A DNA stretch of 64,000 nt from Candidatus Babeliales bacterium (GTDB lineage Bacteria; Babelota; Babeliae; Babelales; JANWKD01). Of the stretch, positions 29,844 to 45,598 are shown in pieces. The notes beneath the pieces are model-generated. The model worked only from the letters and a program-made list of their open reading frames with translations. It was not told the origin of the DNA and did not search any database. Where the stretch lies: contig CAVXJH010000003.1 in the NCBI GenBank assembly GCA_963762115.1, forward strand, positions 96,001 through 160,000, written 5' to 3'. A program made the position numbers and the translations under genes. Numbering within the stretch: position 1 is the stretch's first letter; each line of letters opens with the position of its first letter.

Positions 29844-31379
29844 CTAGAAATTTTTTCTTGGGGCGTCGCCAAGTGGTAAGGCACCGGGTTTTGGTCCCGG
29901 CATTCGGAGGTTCGAATCCTTCCGCCCCAGCCATCGTTTATTATCAATCGAATTTATAATGACATCAAACGGTCTTTGTGCGTCGTAGAGCACTTTTTCA
30001 TTTTCAATACGCAAGTTCGATAGTACTAAATTAATTAACTGACGTTTTTCATTCACTTCTGAACTCACAAACCATTCATATGCACGATTGCTAATATCCA
30101 GCACATATTTTGCGGTAGTATAATAATTGTCTTCTGCTTCTCGTAATTGAAGTAAGCGCATGTTAAGATTTTCGCTTTGCTCGCTAAGAGATTGATAGAA
30201 CTTATCATACTGCTCATCAGAAATTTTACCTTTGAGTTTATCAAGGTATAAGTTATCCATCATTTTTGTTGTTATTTTTTGTTCATTGGTGAGCTTGTCA
30301 AATTGTTGGTTATGAAATTTAATTTTATCTTTATGTAATTCATTAAGATTGTCAGTTATTTTTTGTACGGTAGCTTCTGGTAGTTGAAGGCTTTTGAATA
30401 CTTGCCCAAGTTGTTCTGTTATTTCTTCTTCTCGCAACCACTTAGCACCATGCTTTCCTTTATATTGCGTGCAATGATAGTAGGTGAATCCCTTATGTTT
30501 TTCGGGGGTAATTGAACAGCCGCAATGTCCGCAACGCAAAAGACCTCTATACATATAAGGTAGACCAGCATATTTGAAAGGTTTTTTATTGAAGCCATCT
30601 TTTACTTGCTTAACTTCTTCAAAAAGTGTTTTTGAAATAAGAGGCGGATACCGATGTGGATATAATTTTCCCTTTATCAACATTTCACCATGATAAAAAG
30701 AATTGCCAAGGACTTTGGCAAAATAACTCTTGGACCATTGAATGTTAAAGTCAGCTTTCAGTTTTTGGGACAGAGTTTCTATTGAGTATGCCTTTGTTGC
30801 ATAGAGCTCAAAGATTTTTTTAATGATTGCTGAGGTATAATCATCAACTATGATATCTGTGGTGCCATCCTCCTTGGTGATATTCAAATAGCCATACGGT
30901 GCTTTTGAAAGCCATTCCCCTTTGCGTAGTTTTTGCTCTTGAGCGCGTTTTACATTATCGCTGATTGCATCAGAATAATATTTTGCAAGACCAAGGCTGA
31001 TACTAAATTGAAATTTTTCTACGGCAGAAATGCGACTGTTTAGCACTTGACCATCTGATACAAAATGTAGCTCTAGTTTATCCTGAAGTGCTTTTTCATA
31101 AAGTATGGCGACTTTTTTGTCAAAAATATTGCGAGATAAGCGATCGACTTTATCACAGCAGACGGCGATTTTCTCTTTTTGTGCAAGTACAAAATCAATG
31201 ATACCATTAAACTCATCTCGAGGTCCTTCATGCGCACTTTCATCAAAGCTAAATACTTGAAGAATTGGAAAGCCTTTATTTTGGCAATATTTTTCAAGAC
31301 GGGCTATCTGTGCAGGAAGTGAGTTGCCTGCTTCCCTTTGTTCTTCTGTGCTAACACGTGCAATGAGAATTGACTTCAT
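29844..31379 (-). CDS. Large serine recombinase (integrase); 3' end overlaps the tRNA antisense
   Basis: Catalytic ARVSTEEQ, DKVDRLSRN, KAPYGY recombinase domain, Zn ribbon CGHCG...YYHC, coiled coil; last 29 codons are antisense tRNA and flank. Confidence 0.95.
   Translation of the reverse strand: MKSILIARVSTEEQREAGNSLPAQIARLEKYCQNKGFPILQVFSFDESAHEGPRDEFNGIIDFVLAQKEKIAVCCDKVDRLSRNIFDKKVAILYEKALQDKLELHFVSDGQVLNSRISAVEKFQFSISLGLAKYYSDAISDNVKRAQEQKLRKGEWLSKAPYGYLNITKEDGTTDIIVDDYTSAIIKKIFELYATKAYSIETLSQKLKADFNIQWSKSYFAKVLGNSFYHGEMLIKGKLYPHRYPPLISKTLFEEVKQVKDGFNKKPFKYAGLPYMYRGLLRCGHCGCSITPEKHKGFTYYHCTQYKGKHGAKWLREEEITEQLGQVFKSLQLPEATVQKITDNLNELHKDKIKFHNQQFDKLTNEQKITTKMMDNLYLDKLKGKISDEQYDKFYQSLSEQSENLNMRLLQLREAEDNYYTTAKYVLDISNRAYEWFVSSEVNEKRQLINLVLSNLRIENEKVLYDAQRPFDVIINSIDNKRWLGRKDSNLRMPGPKPGALPLGDAPRKNF
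29859..29933 (+). tRNA. tRNA-Gln (anticodon TTG)
   Basis: Acceptor stem TGGGGCG/CGCCCCA, anticodon arm CCGGG-TT-TTG-GT-CCCGG, T-loop GGTTCGAATCC, encoded CCA. Confidence 0.97.
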
Positions 31380-31388
31380 ATTTTATGA

Positions 31389-31577
31389 TTATTCGTTGGT
31401 AGAATGACCTAATTCTTTTTCATACAGCAAGCGGATGCCTTCACAAAGAATGGTTGATCTGTCGGTCTTATTACGATTACGAAGGCGCTTAATAAATATC
31501 TCATTTAAGAGGCTTTCGTCTTTCTCTGACATATAGATTGTAGTTTTTGCTTTTTTTTGAATAGCTGATTCTTGCAT
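31389..31577 (-). CDS. Small ribbon-helix-helix-like DNA-binding protein
   Basis: KTTIYMSE beta strand plus two helices (RSTILCEGIRLL); AGGA RBS; 9 bp upstream of the integrase. Confidence 0.6.
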   Translation of the reverse strand: MQESAIQKKAKTTIYMSEKDESLLNEIFIKRLRNRNKTDRSTILCEGIRLLYEKELGHSTNE

Positions 31578-31628
31578 AGATTTTTCCTAAAGAACTGAAC
31601 AATTTATAACCTTAATATTATAGGTGTC

Positions 31629-31697
31629 ATTCTAGCTATGTTCCAAAAGAAGTCAAGAAGTTAAAATGTTTGAGCGCCTGAGCGTCTTGACTTCTTT
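31629..31697. promoter_or_regulatory. Divergent promoter/operator with 13-bp inverted repeat
   Basis: AAAGAAGTCAAGA (31646-31658) and TCTTGACTTCTTT (31685-31697); minus strand TTGACT-16 bp-TAGAAT. Confidence 0.55.
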
Positions 31698-31839
31698 CTG
31701 TAAGGTTTTATTATTATAATAAACATGGTTATTTTTTTATAATAATAATTTCTATAAGAAAAATACTTATTGATGATGTTGGATTAATATAATAACAAGC
31801 TCTTTTGAAAATAGTTTATACAAAGCGTAAGGTATCTAT

Positions 31840-32634
31840 ATGAAGAATGAAACTTTAAGTTTTATAGTGATAGTAGTATTATTATTTCTGTTGATGGGGC
31901 CTCGTGGAGAATCAAAAAATTATTGCAGATCTCATGATAGTTTTACCTTTCATTGTCATCATAATGACACCAATACAGATATTTATTTGAGAAGACTGAA
32001 TGCGAAATTTGATAAAGTGCTTGAACTGGTTGATACATCTTCAGAAGGAGTGAAAGATAAAAGATCGATAGAAGAAGCAGCTGTTGAGGCAAAAATTATA
32101 GTTTCAAGTATGTTAACGCAACTTAACCTTTTTAGAGCAGGGAATTTACGGACTGGTTTTTTGGCGAGCATTATTCCTAATTTTTTACGTAATGATGATG
32201 AAATACTATTTGATCATCAAACAGATGCCGCGGTTTCTACTCTTACTGAACTCAAAAATTATACTAAGGAAGAGGCGGGTGTTTTCAGAAAAACTTTGTT
32301 AGAAAGAACTTCCAGCCTAGAATTGATACATCTATGGGGATTAAGTAAAATAAGGTTAAGTTTGTCAGCTATAATTGAAGAATGCATAGCTAAGGCAATA
32401 ATTAAGGGAAATGATTATAATATACCAAGAAGTCTTCAAGAAATTGTTATGCTACGATATGATGAGCTGGATAAAGACGCATCAAGAATACAGGATATTC
32501 TGAAAGCTATTGATAGTGGTGAAATACGTTGGCTTTATGATCTAGAAGTACTTATAAAAAAATTATATGTTGATCAAGATGAATTAACATCATGGTTGAA
32601 ACAATTGGTTATGAAAAGGCCTTATTTATTGTAA
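31840..32634 (+). CDS. Hypothetical cargo protein with N-terminal signal/anchor
   Basis: 264 aa, hydrophobic N-terminus, helical body. Confidence 0.65.
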   Translation: MKNETLSFIVIVVLLFLLMGPRGESKNYCRSHDSFTFHCHHNDTNTDIYLRRLNAKFDKVLELVDTSSEGVKDKRSIEEAAVEAKIIVSSMLTQLNLFRAGNLRTGFLASIIPNFLRNDDEILFDHQTDAAVSTLTELKNYTKEEAGVFRKTLLERTSSLELIHLWGLSKIRLSLSAIIEECIAKAIIKGNDYNIPRSLQEIVMLRYDELDKDASRIQDILKAIDSGEIRWLYDLEVLIKKLYVDQDELTSWLKQLVMKRPYLL

Positions 32635-32650
32635 TAACTTATCAAGGTTC

Positions 32651-33841
32651 TTAATGCTTAATAAATCTTATTTTGGTAGTTAAATTATTAAAATACTTGC
32701 AAGCCTTGCAATTAAGGTTTGCCATAGGAACAATATCACTCTGTAATGATTCCAATGCATCATAAATTGTTGCCTGGACCCAGGAATCATCAATTTTATG
32801 CGCAAATAAATATGGTTCAAATTCAAGCTTCCAATCAAATGAATTTTTATCGGTAATTGCATTGCAAAAAAGTAAATAACCCGTTGAGCAAACAGTATAA
32901 TTATTTTTTTTGAATATCCAAGCATAAAATTCTATTTGCTTCTTGTATTCGTGAAGATATGGAATATTGCTAAAATTCGGATAAATTATAGATTTAACGA
33001 TAGTCTTATAATCAACTATAACCAGTTCTTTTTTATCATTTATCCATACATCATCAACCCCACCATTCACAAACCAATTCTCCCAAACATGATGGAATTG
33101 AATTCCATATTTTCTTTTTTCTTCCCATGACCAAGCGGTTTGCCATTTTTTTAATTTTTTATGACGTAATGGTTTAAAACCTTCGGGCATAATTGGATGC
33201 GCTTCTCCTCTAGTTCGATATTGGTCGAATTCTTTCTTCAAAAGACTATCAACCGCTCTTGATAAAGCAAAAACCTCTCCATCAGCAATTGGTTGCTTAA
33301 TGCCAAGCTTTTTATCAATATAGAAACATCGCTTACAGTATAAGAATGTCTTAATATCAGTCCAACTAAATTCTCTGCGTACTGGCAATTCAGAATTTGT
33401 TTTTTCCTCAATAGGAGGTATATTGCGAGGGTTTATTTTAGGGGCAAATAATTCAGCTTCAATAGCATTATTACAAGAGGCAATTCCAAGCAACCCTTCA
33501 TATAAAATTCTACTCATTAGAAATATTTCTGGAGAATTTTCTTCTAAAGAATTTCTATATTTTTCTTTTGGTAAAATTATTTGAGATTTTATATATTGGC
33601 CAGATGGATTATGTAAAAGAGTTAAAGTTATTTTGATAGATTCGTTTTTTAATTTATCAATCGCATGTTCTATAGAAAGACCATGCTTGATTAAAATATT
33701 ACGGTTTTTTTCGAGCAATGATTTATAATCAGCTTCTGGGTCAATATTTGTTAAAATAATACCATCAATTCCGCCTTTAGCTGCTTCAATCAGAGCTCGA
33801 ATTAATTTTTTTCGTTCGGAGGATTTATATAAGATAGACAT
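32651..33841 (-). CDS. PD-(D/E)XK RecB-family nuclease with N-terminal extension
   Basis: FSWTDI...CKRCFY, GGVDDV...IVDYKT, QIEFY, CKACKY. Confidence 0.85.
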   Translation of the reverse strand: MSILYKSSERKKLIRALIEAAKGGIDGIILTNIDPEADYKSLLEKNRNILIKHGLSIEHAIDKLKNESIKITLTLLHNPSGQYIKSQIILPKEKYRNSLEENSPEIFLMSRILYEGLLGIASCNNAIEAELFAPKINPRNIPPIEEKTNSELPVRREFSWTDIKTFLYCKRCFYIDKKLGIKQPIADGEVFALSRAVDSLLKKEFDQYRTRGEAHPIMPEGFKPLRHKKLKKWQTAWSWEEKRKYGIQFHHVWENWFVNGGVDDVWINDKKELVIVDYKTIVKSIIYPNFSNIPYLHEYKKQIEFYAWIFKKNNYTVCSTGYLLFCNAITDKNSFDWKLEFEPYLFAHKIDDSWVQATIYDALESLQSDIVPMANLNCKACKYFNNLTTKIRFIKH

Positions 33842-33881
33842 AGTATATTACTTTTGCTGCAGGATAAGAATAATATAGATC

Positions 33882-34112
33882 TTAAATATTTTCATTTATC
33901 ATTCCTACATAAGTAGTCTTCATCATACATCTAAGCATCATCAAGCCCATTTTCATAACCATTTTTTTTTCTTGATTAGTTGCACAACACCAGGCCCGCT
34001 CATCTTCCCATGCAGCCTCATAACCCTTATCATATGTGCTATATTTGCTGCATTCAGCAAAAAATAATAAACCAAAGAGAGTAATACAAAGACCAAAAAA
34101 TTGAATATTCAT
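33882..34112 (-). pseudogene. Probable degraded small exported protein
   Basis: Signal-like N-terminus and YDKGYE. After an A-run, the shifted frame gives the related NGYENGLDDA*MYDEDY with an internal stop. Confidence 0.4.
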
Positions 34113-34311
34113 ATAAAACTTTCAATGTTTACTATATATTAATGTAGCCATATAGAATAATCTGTCAAAAAAACCTTTATATGTGCATATTTATTATTTT
34201 ACAAATTAATTTATACATGAAAATTTATATATCGTGTAGCTAATTGATAGTTATAAAATCAAATACAGAATATATTAATTTTGCTTATGTATTTCGATAA
34301 AGGAGAAAATT

Positions 34312-34917
34312 ATGGCTCATTGGGGATGGTACTGGAAGGTAAAGCAAAAACACATTCCAAGAATTATTTGCACAAAATTACCCACCATTGACTCATTTAA
34401 GTTAGCGCAGCATATTAAGGCTATGGTTGGATTTAGCGTGCAGCCTTTAGGGGTTAAAGCTATATTCCAAGGCAATATTCTGAAGATTACCTATAGAAAG
34501 CATAAAGATTATTCCTATATCATCCCTATAGATAAGCAGCCCTGCAATTATGGCGGATTCCGTTATTTTTTTAAATGTCCTTTATGCCAAAGACGCATGC
34601 GAATACTTTATTTTGCACAGCAAAGCATTTTTCTTTGTCGTAAGTGCTTAAACCTAAGCTATGAAACTCAATGCCTAAGACCAACTAAGCGCTATGAATA
34701 CATGAGTCAAAAAGTTAAAGATAGTATGAAAGACAAACAAGGCAATCTAGAACTTTCCAAAAAACCTCCTCGAATGCATAAAGGGAAATATCAAAAACTC
34801 AAAGACAAGCAGTTTGATTATGAATGCAAATCTCACGAAGCTCTATGCCAAGAATTACGACTTTGGCATGGAGTAAAAATCGAACCTTTTTTGGATGACT
34901 TTTTTGATTACAGATGA
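34312..34917 (+). CDS. Basic Zn-finger hypothetical protein typical of integrative elements
   Basis: CNYGGFRYFFKCPLC...FLCRKCLNLSY...KPPRMH; RBS AAGGAG. Confidence 0.75.
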   Translation: MAHWGWYWKVKQKHIPRIICTKLPTIDSFKLAQHIKAMVGFSVQPLGVKAIFQGNILKITYRKHKDYSYIIPIDKQPCNYGGFRYFFKCPLCQRRMRILYFAQQSIFLCRKCLNLSYETQCLRPTKRYEYMSQKVKDSMKDKQGNLELSKKPPRMHKGKYQKLKDKQFDYECKSHEALCQELRLWHGVKIEPFLDDFFDYR

Positions 34918-34940
34918 AAATAATGGGATATTATCTTCAT

Positions 34941-35192
34941 AAGTTGAAATAGTTGAAGTAGATTGAAAAAAAGTCAACTTATCAATATTGGCAATAGATC
35001 GTCATTTCAAGCAAGAATAATCTTGTAGATTTAAAAGTTGAAACCAATCAATTTCCATTGTTGTAATGTTAATAGAAGAGGATTTGTTTCAACTTTTAAA
35101 CTTAATCGTTAATAATATTCATAACCATCGTCTACATCGAAATGTTCCTATGTTGAAATTATTGTTCAATTTTCATCAACTTTTTCAATTGA
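34941..35192. repeat. Cluster of (G/A)TTGAA repeats in both orientations, putative replication origin
   Basis: AAGTTGAAA at 34941 and 35035, AGTTGAA at 34951, TCAACTT at 34974, TTTCAACTT at 35087, GTTGAAA at 35152 and others, at the 3' end of the primase gene. Confidence 0.5.
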
Positions 35193-37574
35193 TTGCTCTA
35201 GCAATTGATATAACCAATCGTTTTTTTGGCCAATTTGATTACATGAAATTTTTCCCTGTTGGATAAGTGTTTCAAGAATGTAATCATACTCTTGGCATCC
35301 GCCATCCAGTTGATGTGAATTGAGAAGGGATTGCCTTCTAACAGAGGATTTTGTTTTTACAATTTTCTTGCAAATCCATTCAAGTATTTTACGGCACTTG
35401 CGCTGATGTTCAGATTCCCCGAGTTCTCCTTCAATTAAATTAGCGGTTGATTTTATAGCCGGCATAAGAATGGCAAAGGCAGAATAAAGGGCTTCAACTC
35501 CTATTTCTTTAGATTTCGTGTCTATAAAAAGTTGCATAATCATAGCCAATTTTAAAAGGCAAGGACTCCAGCGTTTAAGGTGTGGTTCAAGTATTTCTTG
35601 GCATTTATCGCTATAGGAAGGCATTATTTTGTAAATATCCTGATGAAAGCCCTCAAAAATCACTTCTGCTTGATGTGAAAAAGTATAGCTATAGAAGTTG
35701 TCCATATTTTGTAATATTTCCTTGACCTTTTGTTCTGCTTGTTGATTTGATTTTGTTTTTTTAGTTGGCAAAGCAGGTGGTATTTCATATTCATGCGGTG
35801 GAGCGAAAATAAGAAATCTTGCAAAAAAACCACTAGCAAAATCTTCAGGTTTAATGTGTGCCTTTAACCATGCAAGTGTAGAAACAGCGCATATAGAAAT
35901 ATATGGCTCATTTAAAATAAAGTCGCCTCGTGTTACTGTTTTGTAGCGATAACTACGAGGAACATCATACAGCTCTGTAAGTAGTGCTTTAAGATCGCCA
36001 TTGTAGCTTTTTTCCAGATTTAAAAGCCAACCACCAAATTCGCTTGGTAAAATAATACCGGAATGTCCTTGTCCAAGATGCTCAAGTAAAGCTTCCGTAG
36101 TAACTTTAGTTGGCAAAACAACATCTTTGATAGATATTTCAATGATTTGTGCTTTGAGTTCCTTTATTTTTTTGGTATCAGTTTCGAGTTGCAGTTCTTT
36201 GCGTAAATCTTTAGTAAGTTCTCCGACATCCTTTGAAATTTCTAATGCAAGTTTGGTGCCTTTAGTTAATGCGGTGCTTTTGAATTGTCCACTACCGGTA
36301 ACATTTATCATCCAAATATTTGGATAAAGAGTTTGAAAATACTGATCATCTGAAATGAACACACGTTTTCCAATATAAGCTGATATCATGCCCATAACAG
36401 CACTTGTTACCATGATCGGATGTGCATTCGTTGTTGCGCAGATAGAGTTTACATAGTTACCTAAGATTGGCGGGAGAAGGGTTGTAGAGAATGTTGCGCA
36501 TGGATCATTTACTTTAAGAGGTTTTTTTGAAACAATTTTGAGATCATCAGTTTTAATAGCTTCTGAAGAGCAATGTATCGCACTTGCAGAACAGAGTTGC
36601 ATTCTAACTTCTTCTAATCCGCATAGTTGATGAAGGTCGTTGAAATCAGTATAGGGCTTATCATGGGGATCTAATCTTTTGTCTGTTGGAAATACCGGAA
36701 AAATAGTTTTGCATTGAAAAACATCAGCAGCCGCATTAGCCTTTTTTATGCCGGTTTCATCATTATCTCCGGCAATTATAATTATACTTTTTGGAAATGC
36801 TTTTTTTAGGTTTTCAATTACTGGAAGTAGATTGTAAGCATCATAAGCAATGACGACTGTTCCAACATTTGTTGAATAAATACTGACACCGGTTGCCCAG
36901 CCCTCAGTAACATACAGAGTATTACCATCGAGAAGTTCTCCAAGATTATAAAAATTTCCCCTTTTTTCTCCGTCTTGAAGAAAACGCTTAATTATTTTGC
37001 CTCGTTCATCAACATAAATAGATTGTAGTGAGCGGATCTCACCTTTTATATTTTTTAAGGGAAGCAATATTCTTGGGAATTTATTAAAAATAGTAAACTT
37101 TGCACCTATTGCTTCAATTCCTTTAGATTTTGGATATCTAAGGAAATCTTGAGAAGATGGTTCGTTTAAAGCTTCATTCCATACTTTTGTAGCAAGTATT
37201 GCGGCATTATTTTGTGCATCTTTTATTTGTTGTTCCGCTTCTTTTTTCTTTTTTTCGAACTCTGATTGCAGATGTTGTCGTTCCATATCTGATATGTTGC
37301 ATTTGTCATAAGATTTGAAAATATATTGGTTTCCTGTGCTCCATGAGCCATATATGACCGTTAAATATAGACGATCTTGCAAAGAGGTTCCTTCATAGGC
37401 AATATACCATTCATCACGTTTGTTTCTTTGTGTATCTGTTGAATATCGGTGAATTCTACCATCTGTAATGATTTGATCTTCGCATGGCAAACCATTTTCT
37501 GTCATGTGATTGTGGAGTTCTTCTACTAAATCATGTTGATTTTTGATATAATTATTCATAAGAAATTCTTTCAT
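35166..37574 (-). CDS. TOPRIM primase fused to DUF3987-like P-loop helicase (element replicase)
   Basis: YVTEGWATG, IIIAGDND, TDFNDL; TGSGQFKST Walker-A-like motif; SEFGGWL, LTELYD, GFFARFL. Confidence 0.85.
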   Translation of the reverse strand: MKEFLMNNYIKNQHDLVEELHNHMTENGLPCEDQIITDGRIHRYSTDTQRNKRDEWYIAYEGTSLQDRLYLTVIYGSWSTGNQYIFKSYDKCNISDMERQHLQSEFEKKKKEAEQQIKDAQNNAAILATKVWNEALNEPSSQDFLRYPKSKGIEAIGAKFTIFNKFPRILLPLKNIKGEIRSLQSIYVDERGKIIKRFLQDGEKRGNFYNLGELLDGNTLYVTEGWATGVSIYSTNVGTVVIAYDAYNLLPVIENLKKAFPKSIIIIAGDNDETGIKKANAAADVFQCKTIFPVFPTDKRLDPHDKPYTDFNDLHQLCGLEEVRMQLCSASAIHCSSEAIKTDDLKIVSKKPLKVNDPCATFSTTLLPPILGNYVNSICATTNAHPIMVTSAVMGMISAYIGKRVFISDDQYFQTLYPNIWMINVTGSGQFKSTALTKGTKLALEISKDVGELTKDLRKELQLETDTKKIKELKAQIIEISIKDVVLPTKVTTEALLEHLGQGHSGIILPSEFGGWLLNLEKSYNGDLKALLTELYDVPRSYRYKTVTRGDFILNEPYISICAVSTLAWLKAHIKPEDFASGFFARFLIFAPPHEYEIPPALPTKKTKSNQQAEQKVKEILQNMDNFYSYTFSHQAEVIFEGFHQDIYKIMPSYSDKCQEILEPHLKRWSPCLLKLAMIMQLFIDTKSKEIGVEALYSAFAILMPAIKSTANLIEGELGESEHQRKCRKILEWICKKIVKTKSSVRRQSLLNSHQLDGGCQEYDYILETLIQQGKISCNQIGQKNDWLYQLLEQSIEKVDEN

Positions 37575-37619
37575 TGTATTAAAGCTACCTAGGCAGAAAC
37601 CCTAGGTGGCTTTTTTCAT

Positions 37620-37889
37620 TTACTTAATATTTTTAAATGGTTCTTGTGGATGGGATAAATAGGTATATTGTTGTTTGCTGTCATTCTCTAATCCATACGT
37701 GCACATTAATGATTCTTCTTCATCAAACGGATTTAAAAATGCGTTATAGTGAGCAGTTTTTAATTCTCCATTGATATATGCTTCATATTCATGTCTTTCC
37801 CCATCAGCGATAATTCCTTCATATGGATTAGGATCAAGGTTGTGTCTTGTCATATGTTTTCTGAGCTCGCGTTCTAAGTTAATGTTCAT
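37620..37889 (-). CDS. Small hypothetical protein resembling the primase N-terminus
   Basis: ELRKHMTRHNL...IIADGERHEY compared with primase ELHNHMTENGL...IITDGRIHRY; GGAG RBS. Confidence 0.65.
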   Translation of the reverse strand: MNINLERELRKHMTRHNLDPNPYEGIIADGERHEYEAYINGELKTAHYNAFLNPFDEEESLMCTYGLENDSKQQYTYLSHPQEPFKNIK

Positions 37890-38034
37890 GCTTATTCTCC
37901 ATTGTTGAGGACGCGTTTTTTTTATGTATTTTATGTGCGATTGTTATGAGAAGGGCTACATAGTCGGTAAGGCGCTTCCAGTCGGTTTGTGAAAATTGAG
38001 ATATACCGATATCTTCTTTTTGCAGTACTTGCAT
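37879..38034 (-). CDS. 51-aa hypothetical protein (below ORF-track cutoff)
   Basis: GAGGT RBS; MQVLQKEDIGISQFSQTDWKRLTDYVALLITIAHKIHKKNASSTMENKHEH; overlaps the start of the next gene. Confidence 0.55.
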   Translation of the reverse strand: MQVLQKEDIGISQFSQTDWKRLTDYVALLITIAHKIHKKNASSTMENKHEH

Positions 38035-38257
38035 ATAACTACCTCTTATTAAAAAAATTAATATTTTGAGTAGTTATCCACCAAAATGGGGGGGACTTAT
38101 AGGAGAAATTCGCCGAGATAATTGAGGAGATGATTGAATGCTAGCGCCCAGACGTAAAAAATGGGCGCATCTTTTATTTTTTGAAATGGAGGATTCGTGC
38201 TAATTATAAGCGAAGCTATGTGCAACATATCTAAGTTTGTATGTGTCAAAATAGGTA

Positions 38258-39451
38258 TTACGCGAGATAAAATTTTGTTGGGTACTTATCGTTAATTTTT
38301 AATTTTCCCTTGATTCTAGAAATATAGTTATCAATGATGCGCCAGGAGTCTTTGAGGCGGTTATTAATGCTACTACAAGATTTGTAAATTTTTCTGGCAG
38401 AGACCGTTAATTCTTTCTCTAGTTCTTTCTGTAAAATGCCTGCCGGTTTATTCCATAAACGAGAAAGCAGCTTAAATTGTAGAGTTTCGTCTTGTTTTCC
38501 ATGGTTGATGTTGTATTTCTTAAATTCTATATCATCTTTGTTATCGGCTGACAGTATAATTTTATTATTAGAACCGAGCCTGGCCATAATAATTGGTTGC
38601 TTATTATTAATGGAAGTGATGATTGTTTTTTGTTGCAAATTTTCTGTATTCGATATTGATTCTTTATCAGAAGAAAAGACTTGTGATACAGTTCTGGTAT
38701 TTTTTTGTAAGTTAACTAATTGATTAAGTGTGTGTGCATATACTTTTTTTGCATGTGCTTTTCCCTCTATCAAAAATTGTATTTCATTTTGTAATGTATT
38801 TTTTAGGATAATGTTAAGCATAGACTCTAATCGATTTGTTGGTGCTGTATCAGATGAAATTTCTTCTATTAGCAAAGTTCCATAGAGGTTGTGTTGTATG
38901 AGCCACAATAAACTGGTCCATACAGAATCTTGAAGATTTTGGCGTTCAAGGTTCCAAGTTGTGAAGCCTTGAAACTCAATATTGAATGGATCTAAATTTT
39001 TAGCATTGATAATATAAAGCATATCTTGCAACGCATCATGCAGACTGACAACTAGGGGATTGCTTGATTGAAGATAATGCTTTTCGTAGGCTTCGAATGT
39101 ATTTATGTTCATTAAGTGTGTATATTCTTGATGATCTTTAATTTTATCTAGTTGAAAATCATTTCGATAGGGAGGAATAACGATTTCATTTTTGTCGCAA
39201 ATGTCTTTTATTTCAATATATTTTTCCCTGAGTTCTTGTAGGGCTCTTTGTTCAAGTTCAGTAAGCCTATCTTTTTGTTGATAAAATTTTTTTTTAATCA
39301 AGAGAAAGGCTTCTTTCAAAGCTGTGTTTTGAACGAATTTATCGAGAAACTTTGGTAGCTCTGTTTCGAAATCTTTGCTATTCTTGGCGCTATCTATCGT
39401 GATATAACAATCTCTAAATACAACAATTGCATTTTGAATATCGGTTGTCAT
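38258..39451 (-). CDS. Hypothetical protein with possible C-terminal winged helix
   Basis: 397 aa; C-terminal QFKLLSRLW...QKELEKEL...KIYKSCSSINNRL...GKLKIN; AAGGA RBS. Confidence 0.65.
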   Translation of the reverse strand: MTTDIQNAIVVFRDCYITIDSAKNSKDFETELPKFLDKFVQNTALKEAFLLIKKKFYQQKDRLTELEQRALQELREKYIEIKDICDKNEIVIPPYRNDFQLDKIKDHQEYTHLMNINTFEAYEKHYLQSSNPLVVSLHDALQDMLYIINAKNLDPFNIEFQGFTTWNLERQNLQDSVWTSLLWLIQHNLYGTLLIEEISSDTAPTNRLESMLNIILKNTLQNEIQFLIEGKAHAKKVYAHTLNQLVNLQKNTRTVSQVFSSDKESISNTENLQQKTIITSINNKQPIIMARLGSNNKIILSADNKDDIEFKKYNINHGKQDETLQFKLLSRLWNKPAGILQKELEKELTVSARKIYKSCSSINNRLKDSWRIIDNYISRIKGKLKINDKYPTKFYLA

Positions 39452-39565
39452 GATTTTCCTTTTGGGTTAGGTGATTGATATGACAACCGATTATACCTTA
39501 TAACAAGTTATTCTTATAAAAAATAAAAAAAATGGGATGGAATCTGAATATTTAAAGTGGAATGA

Positions 39566-39680
39566 TTATTGAGCAGGAAATGTATGGTTATGCGTAAGAC
39601 TTGAAACTACGGTCTGTACGTGTTGCAAACTAAAGCTAAATTGGATATCCTGACTAAACATGTCTATGATGGGCAGCCAT
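39566..39680 (-). other. Displaced 3' end of the integrase gene at attR (WL-PIIDMFSQ...FPAQ*)
   Basis: In frame with the integrase across the CAGCCAT core; open for 37 codons to a TAA at 39566-39568. Confidence 0.75.
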
Positions 39681-39730
39681 ACTATTAATCATGTTTTTCT
39701 ACATGATTTTTTTTGATTTAAAGATTTTTT
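39677..39730 (+). repeat. 54-bp direct repeat copy 1 (tRNA CCA end plus terminator hairpin)
   Basis: 52/54 identical to 45545-45598; contains AATCATGT-6 nt-ACATGATT plus T-run. Confidence 0.9.
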
Positions 39731-39806: not shown

Positions 39807-39860
39807 TGAATATATAAATATTGGTTCTTATCGTTGTTTTTTCAAATAGGGGAAATTATT

Positions 39861-41753
39861 ATGTTTTTTAAGAAAGCCTTAAAGTTGGTATTATGTACTC
39901 TGACACTTTTTACCACAATAACCATGCATCCTATGGGCCCTAATGAGCTCATAGATTTTCTCACTAAAAATGGTGATACTGTCAGTCTTAAGCGTAAAAT
40001 TGCTGAGCAATCAGGGACAATTTCACATTTATTGGGTGATGTTGATGATCAAGCGCAAGAAGCAATTCCCTTGCCCATTTCAACTGCAATGTTTAAAAGT
40101 ATAAAACCTTTGTTGAAAAAAAACTTTAAAAGTTCTCGATTGCCACAACCGGACACTCAATTATCTCAACAAAATTTACAACAACAATATACTCAGTTAT
40201 CTCAAAAAATTTTACAACAACAATCTGACAACACGTTATTAAAACTTATTCAAACAACTAACTATTTAGATTGCCCTCCTATTTTAGAAAAGTGTGCAGA
40301 TGTTCTTGCAGAAAGAACTTTTAAAAAAAATAGTAATCTTTATATTGTTAGCGCATTTGTATGGACCCAAAAAATGTTACAAAAATTACCCAATGAGCTT
40401 TTGGTCTTAATTCAACAAGCATATCTTAAAAAATCTTGTGATCTTTTTGAGCATGTTCATAATCCTATGCAAACAGAAATTAAGCCAATAACATTAACTG
40501 ATAATAACGGTCAAATTCGATCAGTTCATTATGATATTGATGGAAAAAACATTATTACTCAGATAGATGATGATACCATTTGTCATTGGGACCCTGAGAC
40601 ACAACAAAAAACAACGTTAATTAATAAAACACATTGGCCGTCTCTTGCCTCGAGAAATGAAAATAGAATACACAGCAATAAAATATATTTTGAGACAAGT
40701 GCTTATTCTCCAGATGGTTCAACCTATGCAATTGGTGGAAGCGATACAGTTTGTATTTGGGATCTTAATAAAAAAGAATTACTTAACCATAAAAAGCTTC
40801 CACGTCAATTTAGGACAATGTGTATGTCATATCATCCAGCTCTAACAAGACTTGCTGTTGGCAGTGGCCCTAGAGGAGAAGTTGTTATTTTTGATATAGA
40901 AACTATGGATGTTATTCATACTTTGAAAACTAATGGTATTTGGGTTAAAAATATAAAATATGCGCCGGATGGAAGAACTCTTGCAACAAGTAATATTGGA
41001 AGAAGTAATTCGGTAAAAATATGGGATCAAGAACTAGAAAATTGCCTAAAAACTATTGATGTTGGTGATGATAGTGATGATACTTTCGGACCTCCAGTTA
41101 TATGTTATTCACCTAATAATCAATTTTTGGCCTGCGCAGCAAGTAATAAAATTACTATTTACGAAACAACTAATAATTATGCATGTATTAAAGATATTAA
41201 AAGAGGTGAAAAACCTTTAAATAATGATAAGCAAATTAACTTAATTCAATATACATCAGACGGAAAATATTTGATTGCTGGATTGCAAGATGGAACAATT
41301 GAGTTTCGGGAAACAAATAATTATACTTGCATAAAAACACTTTCATACGATCGACCAATCTGGTCTGTTGCTTTTAATAAGAATGGATCACATATGGCTA
41401 GCATTTCACCAGGAAAAGAATATCCTGAAAGCCGTCTTGTATTGTGGGATATTTCTAGTTTATTTCTTGAAAATATTTTTAAAGAATTAAATTTTGAAGA
41501 ATTATTATTGATAACTAAAGTTGCACTGGCAAAAAAGAACAGTACTAAACTTGAAGTTTGCCCTCTTCATACTAATGAACTTGATGCAACAACAGGAATA
41601 AAAATTTCAGATATTTATGCGAATATACCAAGTCAACTTAAAGAAAAATTAGAACCATATATTAGATTGAATAGATCATGCAAATGTACTTTTTTGCCTA
41701 TTAAAGTTCCTGGGACCCCAAAAACTACGGAAAGAAATAATTATGATTTTTAA
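39861..41753 (+). CDS. Exported Skp1/BTB-like + F-box-like + WD40 protein, copy 1
   Basis: Start MFFKKALK after GGGGA; Skp1-like IAEQSGTISHLL..IPLP..LIQTTNYLD; KLPNELL; WD40 repeats (YSPDGS, VCIWD, VKIWD, LVLWD). Confidence 0.85.
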   Translation: MFFKKALKLVLCTLTLFTTITMHPMGPNELIDFLTKNGDTVSLKRKIAEQSGTISHLLGDVDDQAQEAIPLPISTAMFKSIKPLLKKNFKSSRLPQPDTQLSQQNLQQQYTQLSQKILQQQSDNTLLKLIQTTNYLDCPPILEKCADVLAERTFKKNSNLYIVSAFVWTQKMLQKLPNELLVLIQQAYLKKSCDLFEHVHNPMQTEIKPITLTDNNGQIRSVHYDIDGKNIITQIDDDTICHWDPETQQKTTLINKTHWPSLASRNENRIHSNKIYFETSAYSPDGSTYAIGGSDTVCIWDLNKKELLNHKKLPRQFRTMCMSYHPALTRLAVGSGPRGEVVIFDIETMDVIHTLKTNGIWVKNIKYAPDGRTLATSNIGRSNSVKIWDQELENCLKTIDVGDDSDDTFGPPVICYSPNNQFLACAASNKITIYETTNNYACIKDIKRGEKPLNNDKQINLIQYTSDGKYLIAGLQDGTIEFRETNNYTCIKTLSYDRPIWSVAFNKNGSHMASISPGKEYPESRLVLWDISSLFLENIFKELNFEELLLITKVALAKKNSTKLEVCPLHTNELDATTGIKISDIYANIPSQLKEKLEPYIRLNRSCKCTFLPIKVPGTPKTTERNNYDF

Positions 41754-43617
41754 GAAAGCTTTAAAGTCTCTTTTATGTATTCTGACATTTTTTACGATAG
41801 TAACCATGCATTCAATGCAGCAACCAAATGATCCTAATGAGCTCATAGGTTTTCTCACTAAAAATGGTGATACTGTCAGTCTTAAGCGTAAAATTGCTGA
41901 ACAATCAGGGACAATTTCACATTTATTGGGTGATGTTGATGATCAAACGCAAGAAGTAATTCCCTTGCCCATCTCAACGGCAATGTTTAAAAGTATAAAA
42001 CCTTTGTTGAAAAAAAATTTTAAAGGTTCTCGATTGCCACAACCGGACACTCAATTATCTCAACAAAATTTACAACAACAATATACTCAGTTATCTCAAC
42101 AAATTTTACAACAACAATCTGATAATGCGTTATTAAAACTTATTCAAACAACCAACTATTTAGATTGTCCTCCTATTTTAGAAAAGTGTGCAGATGTTCT
42201 TGCAGTAAGAACTTTTTCAAAAAATAGTGATCTTTATATTGTTAGTGCATTTGTATGGACCAAAAAGATGTTACAAAAATTACCAAATGAGCTTTTGGCC
42301 TTAATTCAGCAGGCATATCTTAAGAAATCTTGTGATCTTTTTGAGCATGTTCATAATCCAATGCAAGCAGAAATTAAGCCAATAACATTAACTAATAATA
42401 ACGGTCAAATTCGATCAGTTCATTATGATATTGACGGAAAAAAAATTATTACTCAGATAGATGATGATACCGTTTGTTATTGGGACCGTGAGACACAACA
42501 AAAAACAACGTTAATTGATAAAACACATTGGCAGTCTCTTGCCTCGAGAAATGAAAATAGAATGCTCAGAGATAAAATGTATTTTGAGACAAGTGCTTAT
42601 TCTCCAGATGGTTCAACGTATGCAACTGGTGGAAGCGATACAGTTTGTATTTGGGATCTTAATAAAAAAGAATTACTCAACCATAAAAAGCTTTCATGGC
42701 AATTTAGGCCAAAGTGTATGTCATATCATCCAACATTAAAAAAGCTGGCTGTTGGCAGTGGTCGTAGAGGAGAAGTGGTTATTTTTGATATGGAAACTAT
42801 GGAAGTTGCTCATAGTTTGAAAACTAATGATATTTTGGTTAAAAATATAGAATATGCGCCGGATGGAAGAACTCTTGCAATAAGCACTATTGGAAATGGA
42901 AGCAATTCATTAAAAATATGGGATCTAGAACTAAAAAATTGCCTAAAAACTATTGATGTTGATTATGATACTTTCGTATCACCAATTATATGTTATTCAC
43001 CTAATAGTCAATTTTTGGCCTATGCATCAAGTAATAAAATTACTATTTACGAAACAACTAATAATTATGCATGTATTAAAGATATTAAAAGAGGTGAAAA
43101 ACCTTTAAATAATGATGAGGAGCAAATTAACTCAATTCAATATACATCAGACGGAAAATATTTGATTGGTGGATTGCAAGATGGAACAATTAAGTTTTGG
43201 GAAACAAGTAATTATACTTGTATAAAAACACTTTCATACGATCGACCAGTCTGGTCTGTTGCTTTTAATAAGAATGGATCACATATGGCTAGCATTTCAC
43301 TAGGCAAGAGATATCCTGAAAGTCATCTTGTGTTGTGGGATATTTCTAGTTTATTTCTTGAAAATATTTTTAAAGAATTAAATTTTGAAGAATTATTATT
43401 GATAACTAAAGTTGCCTTGGCAAAAAAGAATAATAGTAAGCTTGAAGTTTGTCCTCTTCATACTAATGAACTTGATGCAAAAGCAGGAATAAAAATTTCA
43501 GCTATTTATGCGAATATACCAAGTCAACTCAAAGAAAAATTAGAACCATATATTAGATTGAATAGATCATGCAAATGCACTTTTTTGCCTATTAAAGTTC
43601 CTGGGGAAAAAAAATAA
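41743..43617 (+). CDS. Exported Skp1/BTB-like + F-box-like + WD40 protein, copy 2
   Basis: Near-identical tandem duplicate of 39861..41753. Confidence 0.85.
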   Translation: MIFKKALKSLLCILTFFTIVTMHSMQQPNDPNELIGFLTKNGDTVSLKRKIAEQSGTISHLLGDVDDQTQEVIPLPISTAMFKSIKPLLKKNFKGSRLPQPDTQLSQQNLQQQYTQLSQQILQQQSDNALLKLIQTTNYLDCPPILEKCADVLAVRTFSKNSDLYIVSAFVWTKKMLQKLPNELLALIQQAYLKKSCDLFEHVHNPMQAEIKPITLTNNNGQIRSVHYDIDGKKIITQIDDDTVCYWDRETQQKTTLIDKTHWQSLASRNENRMLRDKMYFETSAYSPDGSTYATGGSDTVCIWDLNKKELLNHKKLSWQFRPKCMSYHPTLKKLAVGSGRRGEVVIFDMETMEVAHSLKTNDILVKNIEYAPDGRTLAISTIGNGSNSLKIWDLELKNCLKTIDVDYDTFVSPIICYSPNSQFLAYASSNKITIYETTNNYACIKDIKRGEKPLNNDEEQINSIQYTSDGKYLIGGLQDGTIKFWETSNYTCIKTLSYDRPVWSVAFNKNGSHMASISLGKRYPESHLVLWDISSLFLENIFKELNFEELLLITKVALAKKNNSKLEVCPLHTNELDAKAGIKISAIYANIPSQLKEKLEPYIRLNRSCKCTFLPIKVPGEKK

Positions 43618-45324: not shown

Positions 45325-45544
45325 ACCTAATATTTTTTAAAAATATATGTATGGATTAAATTTTACTATGTTAAAAATTACTATACAACTATCGGATAAT
45401 TAACCCAAGTTATGGCTCAATTATAAAATCCTTTTAATTTAATTATTCGCTCTGTAATTTATAACGAGTTGTTGGTGAAAATCTGCTGAATTTGCTAATA
45501 TCATTTAAGTTATTGTGGAGTTGAAGTGTAATCAGTGACTTCAC

Positions 45545-45598
45545 CCATACTATTAATCATGTTTTTCTACATGATTTTTTTTCATTTAAAGGTTTTTT
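45545..45598 (+). repeat. 54-bp direct repeat copy 2
   Basis: 52/54 identical to 39677-39730. Confidence 0.9.

Follow-up and report, generated by a model that had tools for sequence, protein, structure and literature searches.

Organization of the island

The window analysed here is a 64,000-nucleotide stretch of a Candidatus Babeliales bacterium genome. It contains an island of 9,746 bp, measured from core to core, that is inserted at a tRNA-Gln gene. The genes and sites are given below by window position.

29859..29933, plus strand: tRNA-Gln(ttg), the island's target gene (ARAGORN)
29928..29934: tRNA-side core of the integrated island; the predicted crossover dinucleotide is 29928-29929, and 29931-29933 form the Trp483 codon on the minus strand
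29844..31379, minus strand: large serine integrase, integrated form, 511 aa (ORF and domains)
31389..31577, minus strand: 62-aa ORF upstream of the integrase (no conservation)
32651..33841, minus strand: cargo gene of the PD-(D/E)XK nuclease family (3 of 26 other islands have homologs)
35166..37574, minus strand: Toprim primase and DUF3987 protein, 802 aa (domain scans)
37879..38034, minus strand: ORF of 51 aa, putative recombination directionality factor (its family occurs in 25 of 27 islands; complex prediction)
39566..39673, minus strand: stored C-terminal tail, 35 codons plus stop (tail profile, E=1e-8)
39674..39680: far-end core (7-mer match; junction contig in a relative)
39687..39715, plus strand: A/U-rich hairpin and T-run, expected right behind the tRNA when the site is empty (folding; comparison with G001)
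45542..45598, plus strand: another copy of the far core with its post-tRNA flank, matching at 54 of 57 nt, 5,868 bp beyond the far core

No virion structural genes were found among the scanned island ORFs (Pfam and PHROG), so the island does not classify as a prophage, and six pattern matches to the query among viral contigs yielded no confirmed case and no relative. Judged by its domains, the Toprim primase/DUF3987 protein likely serves to replicate the element in its free form. The type-B tail profile did not single out the flank copy at 45542.

The two ends of the island carry the heptamer CAGCCAT, at 29928 and 39674. Further copies lie at 2496, 12230, 14327 and 44864; the chance expectation is 0.23 per 10 kb, and the 7-mer by itself is not beyond chance. 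The recurrence pointed out in the initial annotation is real on other grounds: homology of the adjoining tail, a junction contig and pairing of the ends across the family rule out a chance match, and we rejected that explanation for the far copy. The block that is identical across the family is 6 nt long (29928-29933), with the seventh base incidental. In the joined (attP) sequence the core is flanked by a 5-bp dyad, as had been proposed, and symmetry over ±12 bp is 0.50 at the proposed crossover centre and at most 0.37 at 17 other centres. The att sites are short, with dyad symmetry about a 2-bp crossover common to attP and attB, whose position we infer from the symmetry and the identity block. 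By inference, the discriminator and CCA (the final 4 nt of tRNA-Gln) would now be supplied by the island.

The initial annotation proposed looking for the recombined junctions in sequencing reads. One Logan contig in run X3 (266 nt, depth 2.5) crosses exactly from 39673 to 29928. Its source is a close relative from a separate soil study: 203 nt of it differ from the window at 15 positions, and 70 nt at 3. As a single contig of low depth, it could represent a tandem copy instead of a free circle. The joint of the empty site was not listed in runs X1-X4, which were searched as contigs with the whole island as query and can show presence only; nor was any RNA dataset listed as containing the sequence. 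An empty site does occur in a genome of the same genus (G001), where a similar hairpin and T-run directly follow the CCA; its alignment score of 42.5 exceeds those of all 42,468 other windows, the highest of which is 34.5. Behind the far core, the corresponding hairpin (39687-39708) has a folding energy of -7.4 kcal/mol (z -4.7) and is followed by a T-run. The initial annotation read this pair as a terminator; the hairpin is, however, A/U-rich and was not listed by the terminator scan.

The integrase gene in its integrated form

As the initial annotation had noted, the integrase frame runs through the 3' end of the tRNA gene. Residues 1-484 are encoded by the island and residues 485-511 by the antisense strand of the tRNA and 15 nt upstream of it, with the Trp483 codon being the antisense of the tRNA's CCA. 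The 3' end of the gene therefore overlaps attL, and its stop codon lies outside the island. The protein begins with a serine catalytic domain, after which come a recombinase and a zinc-ribbon domain (Pfam PF00239, PF07508 and PF13408, all above cut-off), as expected of a large serine integrase, and residues R8, S10, D79, R80 and R83 are nearly invariant among 125 homologs. The predicted fold of a homolog, P0009, matches solved integrases (E 2e-20) and has long helices at residues 335-415 that form a coiled coil within the zinc domain. Structure alignments to solved integrases give Z of about 9-10.5 and rmsd of 2-15 Å, which is middling for a helical protein. For the solved LI, SPbeta, Bxb1 and phiC31 integrases, the alignment covers for the most part residues 1 to about 204 of the model (up to 227 for two chains), which places the end of the canonical domains before the Trp.

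Beyond the Trp, the integrated ends have little in common. Their tRNA-derived tails range from 3 to at least 80 residues, and 79 of the 120 closest homologs end no more than five residues past the Trp; in all, 110 of these 120 proteins end in a short or tRNA-derived tail. With 15 of 27 islands stopping within 4 residues, the tRNA-derived tail lacks conservation, and this end is best read as a truncation and not as one of two designed isoforms. In 7 of 26 other islands the integrase frame is shorter than 400 aa, which also fits the view that integrated forms would frequently be dead ends.

The arrangement recurs in relatives of the island

We surveyed 261 genomes of the phylum and found the integrase C-terminal end in 108 and the tail in 106. 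Where the two lie within 40 kb of one another, the tail is upstream on the same strand in 44 of 51 pairs, counted among the best 91 of 222 integrase matches and among 150 listed tail matches out of 260. Of 56 loci with a placed Trp, some of which are one record present in two collections, 37 have an ARAGORN tRNA on the opposite strand whose end coincides exactly with the Trp codon; of the rest, 7 have an antisense T-loop and 12 have other ends, mostly attP-type tails.

For island statistics we kept 33 unique pairs from 43 stretches, dropping those with no Trp-starting tail, those with no placed Trp and duplicates; one far end with a core match and a weak tail (L013) was also excluded. At least 6 nt, counted from TGG, are identical at both ends in 32 of the 33 islands (mean 6.5 and maximum 16 over 10,000 permutations), and this shared block begins at the Trp codon that supplies the tRNA's CCA. 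Removal of islands with no tRNA called at the Trp, a tandem junction or a 5-nt block leaves a clean set of 27. Genes common to these 27 are the integrase, a small ORF and a replication-type gene, and tRNA targets across the family include Gln, Glu, Asp, Arg, Asn and Met.

A conserved tail encoded only by attP

Continuing the integrase frame over the core into the far end gives a protein of 519 aa that carries the very tail predicted in the initial annotation, and attP thereby lies inside the integrase gene. The 35-residue tail joins residue 484 in frame only in the attP form, whether circular or tandem, and natural tandem junctions do restore the tailed frame. An early position-weight scan ranked the window's tail third, and a better profile was then built from the tails that it found elsewhere. 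With a profile from 7 homologs that excluded the window, the window's tail scores E=1e-8 among 42,478 six-frame genome segments, so the conservation predicted for this tail is borne out. In codons 12-33, which lie beyond the att arm, pN is 0.40 versus a pS of 0.77, and pN is below pS in 350 of 351 tail pairs (the pairs are non-independent); selection of the tails by protein profile biases this test upward. These values indicate that the attP tail is under selection as protein, beyond the att arm.

In a naturally fused homolog with a deep alignment (P0176), the tail is predicted as two helices with pLDDT of 81-96. The initial fold of P0009 gave 43-59 for the tail because few tail rows were available. 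There are at least two unlike kinds of tail on related integrase bodies, and across 22 islands the distances between tails and between bodies show no sign of tight co-inheritance (Mantel rho 0.07-0.12, p 0.19-0.33). Searches with the tail gave little: the tail region of P0009 recovered itself alone among 20 candidates, a sequence search of solved structures with C-terminal alignment returned nothing relevant, and the Atlas matches all fall below 0.9 and serve as leads only.

A candidate directionality factor

The family of the 51-aa ORF is present in 25 of 27 islands, and a profile built without the window's copy finds that copy at E=5.5e-5. Prediction of its complex with the integrase gives an ipSAE of 0.81 versus 0.00 for the best control. 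At least 85% of contacts are shared between runs, and the pLDDT of the partner is 72. The mark used for this score is reached by 116 of 157 solved pairs and 2 of 215 mismatched pairs; the score may owe something to solved integrase-RDF complexes that the predictor has memorized, and the ORF in the window is a divergent member of its family. The predicted interface comprises integrase residues 333-348, 421-452 and 468-477, at the junction of the zinc domain and the coiled coil. Known recombination directionality factors (RDFs) are predicted at this same junction, which C-terminal extensions have been proposed to block (PMC12286644), and in the SPbeta integrase the RDF pocket is lined by residues 530-545, which are important for direction (bioRxiv 10.1101/2025.01.03.631226). 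By its spread across the islands and by the modelled complex, the 51-aa protein is a likely candidate for a conventional directionality factor. The tail profile and the profile of this candidate show no homology.

These data weaken the original proposal of a built-in switch that takes the place of a directionality factor, and the tail may still plausibly contribute to direction or stability. The cofactor originally suggested was the 62-aa protein of 31389-31577. It has no Pfam or PHROG match, and we rejected it since tblastn finds no match in 26 related islands.

A model for control of direction

In the model that we propose, the island is an integrative element of 9.7 kb. Its free form would encode an enzyme of 519 aa that ends in a conserved and probably folded tail; its inserted form encodes the 484-residue body unchanged, followed by an unconserved end derived from the tRNA. 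Strand exchange would occur at the two bases that follow the Trp codon plus one base, and the element's own Trp codon would therefore rebuild the tRNA's CCA. A change in the dinucleotide would accompany a move to other tRNAs (Gln, Glu, Asp, Arg, Asn or Met). On the tailless body, the predicted docking site of the 51-aa protein is the junction between zinc domain and coiled coil. More speculatively, the tail may pack on or beside the factor's groove, such that the circle-encoded enzyme resists the factor and integrates, and the truncated enzyme made after insertion may expose the groove and excise only when the factor is expressed. That direction is set in two layers, with the tail favouring insertion and the small island protein favouring excision, by an integrase whose gene spans the predicted attP, seems to us an evenly balanced proposition. 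The fuller version is tentative: a widespread tRNA-targeting family would carry a recombination-removable inhibitor of its own directionality factor, an attP-only tail that fills the factor's groove, with insertion turning a factor-resistant integrase into a factor-responsive excisionase and the Trp codon doubling as CCA.

Several other explanations bear on the same observations. Insertion might largely shut the integrase off and so stabilize the island, only the tailed enzyme being fully active and excision being rare and dependent on full-length enzyme from an incoming circle or tandem junction. Self-silencing by insertion has reportedly been shown for myxophage Mx8. A folded tail under purifying selection agrees with this possibility, as do the tailed frames restored at natural tandem junctions and the tandem arrays and decayed integrases that are common, also on C5 of this genome, and McMurdie et al. 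propose it for dsiB in their passages on that gene (PMC3146451). Every canonical integrase domain precedes the break, however, the candidate factor has a predicted interface with the tailless body, and an attP junction exists in a close relative of the element; we consider such silencing credible but less likely. Alternatively the tail could be a general stabilizing or oligomerizing addition of quantitative effect, with the small factor alone setting direction and the overlap with attP arising merely since a Trp codon conveniently restores CCA. The near-universal factor candidate, the unlike tail types on related bodies and the uncorrelated body and tail distances would all suit such an addition, but about 31 tail residues are conserved with a synonymous excess well past the binding arm, and attP forms retain the tail where the gene could stop at the Trp, which makes it improbable.

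A degradation switch, in which the attP tail is a protease tag removed by integration, has a precedent in the BPs repressor as presented in passages of PMC3694055. Among near and distant homologs, an Ala-Ala end is found in 5 of 27 long non-tRNA tails versus 1 of 84 tRNA-derived tails (Fisher p 0.003, with kin not independent). In this clade, an Ala-Ala end is missing from all 27 tails, the final residues vary freely, and conservation falls in an internal, folded stretch; the tail in the window ends in Pro-Ala-Gln, and we regard a tag as very unlikely. The strongest form of the initial annotation, that the antisense-tRNA peptide is the functional tail of a second isoform, can draw on the recurrence of the same peptide in Gln-targeting islands. 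This recurrence follows from conservation of the tRNA. Asp- and many Glu- and Arg-targeting islands stop within 3-4 codons, and lengths run from 3 to more than 80, leaving meaningful coding by the antisense tRNA with almost no likelihood.

Relationship to known systems

The domain architecture is that of the LI/A118, SPbeta (SprA/SprB), phiC31 and Bxb1 integrases, with catalytic, recombinase and zinc-ribbon domains and a coiled coil. Like the phage systems, the island has a short dyad attP with a central dinucleotide and a small protein predicted at the zinc-domain/coiled-coil junction. In phage large serine integrases, attP generally lies outside the gene and the protein is unchanged by insertion. 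Here, unlike in those integrases, a folded extension is predicted past the last canonical domain in the attP form only. The tyrosine integrase of Mx8 reportedly has attP within its gene, and insertion into a tRNA gene is said to alter its frame. According to passages of PMC5861418, insertion of SSV1/SSV2 into a tRNA gene likewise alters the integrase's own reading frame; such SSV-type genes are interrupted, whereas all canonical domains survive here. Serine and tyrosine recombinases belong to unrelated superfamilies, and the likeness to SSV1 and Mx8 is in layout only. In BPs mycobacteriophage, as passages of PMC3694055 describe, integration-dependent immunity arises when integration removes the C-terminal segment of a protein encoded across attP; that protein is a repressor and the segment a degradation tag, whereas the protein here is an integrase, in whose clade no common tag is seen.

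The closest layout is that of DsiB, and the view that attP within an integrase gene is a trait of tyrosine integrases does not stand, since passages of McMurdie et al. (2011, PMC3146451) noted it for this serine recombinase. In the Dehalococcoides ssrA islands, those passages report, the reverse-strand large serine recombinase always overlaps attL at its 3' end, has its stop codon outside the island and a variable C-terminus, and sits in islands that occur in tandem; the authors suggest that its full function may be limited to the circle or to tandem junctions. The recombinase 3' end over attL and the stop beyond the island are shared with our element. DsiB targets tmRNA, whereas this island targets tRNA-Gln and the genome's tmRNA is on another contig. 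As described there, DsiB is also part of a module of six genes that includes an additional, small serine recombinase (DsiA), ParB and Mom, none of which is among the main ORFs of the island (Pfam and PHROG); a second recombinase is not common to the islands here. A conserved attP tail and a small factor candidate characterize this family, and neither appears in the DsiB passages. Beyond the DsiB remark, our search of mostly open-access main texts returned no serine integrase that targets a tRNA gene and has a tail specific to attP.

How large serine integrases control their direction is a subject of current structural work, in which it is still open whether extensions at the C-terminus stand in for directionality factors or block them (PMC12286644). 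In this family the same enzyme occurs naturally both with and without such an extension, together with a predicted cognate factor, which allows a direct test. Most database copies are truncated integrated forms, as among the closest proteins counted above, and mining them for genome editing would clone the wrong C-terminus. With at least six tRNA types reached through a 6-nt identity block, the family is also a source of integrases for conserved landing sites.

Integrase frame and attP junction

The serine integrase of the 9,746-bp island is encoded by a frame that passes through the tRNA-Gln gene, with the codon of Trp483 lying antisense to the tRNA CCA. The features concerned are:

29844-31379, minus strand: integrase ORF, 511 aa
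29859-29933, plus strand: tRNA-Gln
29928-29934 and 39674-39680: near and far cores, CAGCCAT
31389-31577: 62-aa ORF
37879-38034, minus strand: 51-aa ORF, candidate recombination directionality factor (RDF)
39566-39673, minus strand: attP tail, 35 codons

As the initial annotation had read it, the core 7-mer recurs at 39674, and carrying the frame across gives a protein of 519 aa. Chance alone predicts 0.23 copies of the 7-mer per 10 kb, so further evidence was required for the far core. A contig from sequencing run X3, which belongs to a different study from that of the best-matching run, crosses from 39673 to 29928; its shorter arm is 63 nt, not counting the 7 shared nt. Realigned, it matches 39611-39680 with 3 differences and then continues into integrase-side sequence. 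The search for an attP junction in sequencing data was answered by a single contig of depth 2.5 from a close relative, which may represent either a circle or a tandem copy. The empty site proposed in the same annotation also has a counterpart in G001, a genome of the same genus, where a similar hairpin and T-run follow the CCA.

The integrase family and its tails

This integrase layout is real and widespread. Among the 120 closest proteins (query included), 79 stop no more than 5 residues from the Trp and 31 run on into an antisense tRNA; the remainder are 9 with tails of another kind and 1 without the Trp. A tRNA on the opposite strand ends exactly at the Trp codon in 37 of 56 loci with a placed Trp, the types being Gln, Asp, Glu, Asn, Met and Leu. 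In the short integrase ends, the frame reads antisense tRNA-Asp, -Glu or -Asn and soon meets a stop; homologs at 30-40% identity repeat the same C-terminal pattern. At spoVG loci with this tRNA-Gln, the integrase frame runs into the tRNA in 2 of 30 (the host genome, G000, and genome G035).

Seven other loci likewise have a far end where the core recurs with a candidate tail. A profile of the tails from six of these and the natural fused protein P0009, with the window left out, matches the window tail at E=1e-8, and also matches three further tails on contig C5 of the host genome. Two of the three are parts of islands arrayed in tandem at tRNA-Glu; there the genome's second integrase ends 3 residues from the Trp. 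In a survey of 261 genomes of the phylum, the integrase C-terminal end was matched in 108 and the tail in 106. Pairs within 40 kb, drawn from the best 91 of 222 integrase and the best 150 of 260 tail matches, place the tail upstream of the integrase and in the same orientation in 44 of 51 cases; three of the rest lie downstream on the same strand (two as in-frame fusions) and four on the other strand.

In the tRNA-Glu region on C5 (148652-164261, locus L189), another island is built on the same plan; an older one follows it in tandem, and the far ends of both carry the tail. An additional tail remnant lies near C5:4678. A second, unlike attP tail type is joined to the bodies of close integrase relatives, frequently where islands meet in tandem (proteins P0013, P0028, P0050 and P0059; loci L023, L172 and L178), and tails are therefore exchangeable between elements.

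Crossover site

Islands range in size from 2.9 to 12.5 kb. Counted from the TGG, both ends share at least 6 nt in 32 of 33 unique islands and exactly 6 in 19; shuffling the far ends gave a mean of 6.5 such matches and a maximum of 16. The shared 6-mer differs by tRNA type. Across 27 reconstructed attP sites, symmetry is greatest when centred on the final two bases of the 6-mer (0.50 vs at most 0.37 elsewhere). From this identity block and symmetry peak, strand exchange is likely to occur at 29928-29929, in which case the tRNA end would likely be rebuilt from the element's Trp codon and one further base. The motif of a short palindromic repeat lies within 18 nt of the core in 13 of 27 far-end flanks; this repeat is often found behind tRNA genes in these genomes (L090, L091, L105, L115).

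Nature of the attP tail

The first codons of the tail overlap the binding arm, so the conserved tail motif offered as a check by the initial annotation is partly a DNA constraint. Constraint on the tail as protein did hold up beyond the arm: codons 12-33 have entropies of 1.18, 0.86 and 1.53 at codon positions 1, 2 and 3, and pN is 0.40 vs a pS of 0.77, for non-independent pairs of tails selected by protein profile. When the alignment included 46 tail-only rows, the tail of the natural fused homolog P0176 was modelled as two helices at pLDDT 81-96 (pTM 0.80); alignments with few tail rows gave no confident fold. Because the alignable part of solved integrases mostly stops near model residue 204, short of the Trp at 209, the model presents the tail as an addition beyond the canonical integrase and the inserted form as retaining all canonical domains.

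A candidate directionality factor

Besides the integrase, ORF clustering across 27 islands revealed a small gene ahead of a replication-type gene. A profile built from 19 islands, excluding the window, recovers 6 of the other 8, among them the window's 51-aa ORF at E=5.5e-5. The 62-aa ORF previously put forward as a cofactor has no match in 26 related islands and was dropped.

When integrase residues 265-483 and the 51-aa protein were modelled as a complex, three runs scored 0.81, and none of the three controls exceeded 0.00. The mark passed here was met by 116 of 157 solved pairs and by 2 of 215 mismatched ones, figures that are only rough for the alignments used here. At least 85% of contacts agree between runs, and the partner has a pLDDT of 72. 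The predicted interface comprises the coiled-coil base, the helices after it and a Pro-Phe motif. In the portions of the sources available, verified RDFs are predicted to bind the zinc-domain/coiled-coil junction (PMC12286644) and the SPbeta RDF binds there (bioRxiv 10.1101/2025.01.03.631226). The predicted interface of the 51-aa protein falls at the same junction, and the modelling supports binding to the integrase at this RDF site.

Small-gene distances track integrase distances weakly (rho 0.27, p 0.03, 17 islands), tail distances do not (rho 0.07-0.12, p 0.19-0.33), and tail and candidate factor, when compared, are not homologous. The presence of the candidate in 25 of 27 islands argues against the earlier idea that the tail swap stands in for a directionality factor. 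Behind the small gene, most islands carry a family of about 375 aa (e.g. L002:6807-7925) that has no Pfam or PHROG match and is likely an undescribed replication protein; a Toprim primase replaces it in the window and in L179.

Control of direction

We put at even chances a scheme in which direction is set in two layers. In the free form the tail would favour integration; insertion would remove it, leaving an enzyme that excises once the small factor is made. Abe et al. 2021 reportedly concerns the extreme C-terminus of the SPbeta integrase. Speculatively, tail and factor may compete for one groove, given the proposal, in the accessible text of PMC12286644, that extensions at the C-terminus could obstruct the RDF site and the role ascribed to the SPbeta extreme C-terminus in that of bioRxiv 10.1101/2025.01.03.631226.

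Silencing of the integrase after insertion is an unlikely alternative to this two-layer control, and a tail with no directional role seems decidedly improbable. A tail acting as a degradation tag would accord with the Ala-Ala ends of 5 of 27 non-tRNA tails overall, but none of the 27 tails of the window's clade ends in this way, and we give the idea very little credence. The initial annotation had also cast the antisense tRNA strand as meaningful coding sequence; integrated tails are unconserved, with 15 of 27 at most 4 residues long and others reaching 80 or more, and a functional antisense-tRNA peptide is hardly to be expected.

Ala-Ala ends are rare among tRNA-derived tails. The Ala-Ala-ending non-tRNA tails of distant homologs (P0146, P0147, P0154, P0192, P0218, P0259) resemble a ClpXP tag. 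The host tmRNA (C6:170567-171022, minus strand, L120) has an apparent tag of about 40 residues, unusually long and with the resume codon placed by eye, which ends in Gly-Tyr-Cys, not Ala-Ala.

Relation to known systems

In Mx8, attP lies inside a tyrosine integrase gene. The system described here is partly anticipated in print. As far as the available text of each source goes, the 3' end of the large serine recombinase gene dsiB always overlaps attL, with its stop outside the island, and full function of dsiB may be confined to the circular form (McMurdie et al. 2011, PMC3146451); SSV-type tyrosine integrase genes are split by an att site within them (PMC5861418); and the repressor of phage BPs loses a tag upon integration (PMC3694055). 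The window system is like dsiB, as described there, in layout and differs in target and gene module. Nothing on such a system was found in the available part of PMC12884075, and a literature search that lacked some key papers found no account of the tRNA-targeting integrase family, its tail or the small factor. New here are sequence evidence for the attP junction, a test of selection on the tail and the directionality-factor candidate.

Genomic surroundings

Contig C3, which contains the window, is part of a 1.53-Mb genome. Named organisms with the most similar integrases include Candidatus Dependentiae/Babeliales and Patescibacteria; given also the small genome and the WD40 and ankyrin genes close by, the host probably belongs to Dependentiae. 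Genes are arranged as ftsK-like, murF-like, rsmH-like (putative names, given by resemblance of sequence), spoVG, tRNA-Gln and then the island. In a near-identical island from run X1, a joint skips 285 nt within a 397-aa ORF (38402-38688 on the window), and the sequence is unrelated beyond window position 39500.

A 57-nt direct repeat (95%; 39674-39730 and 45542-45598) doubles the far core and the post-tRNA hairpin. The 5.9 kb between its copies contain two WD40 genes, an 81-aa ORF and a DUF1016/YhcG gene, all absent from the same site in G001. This stretch may stem from an earlier insertion into the same tRNA; a search of it for an integrase or tail remnant detected none. The two tandem WD40 beta-propeller genes (39834-43617) are eukaryote-like and 92-95% alike across long stretches.
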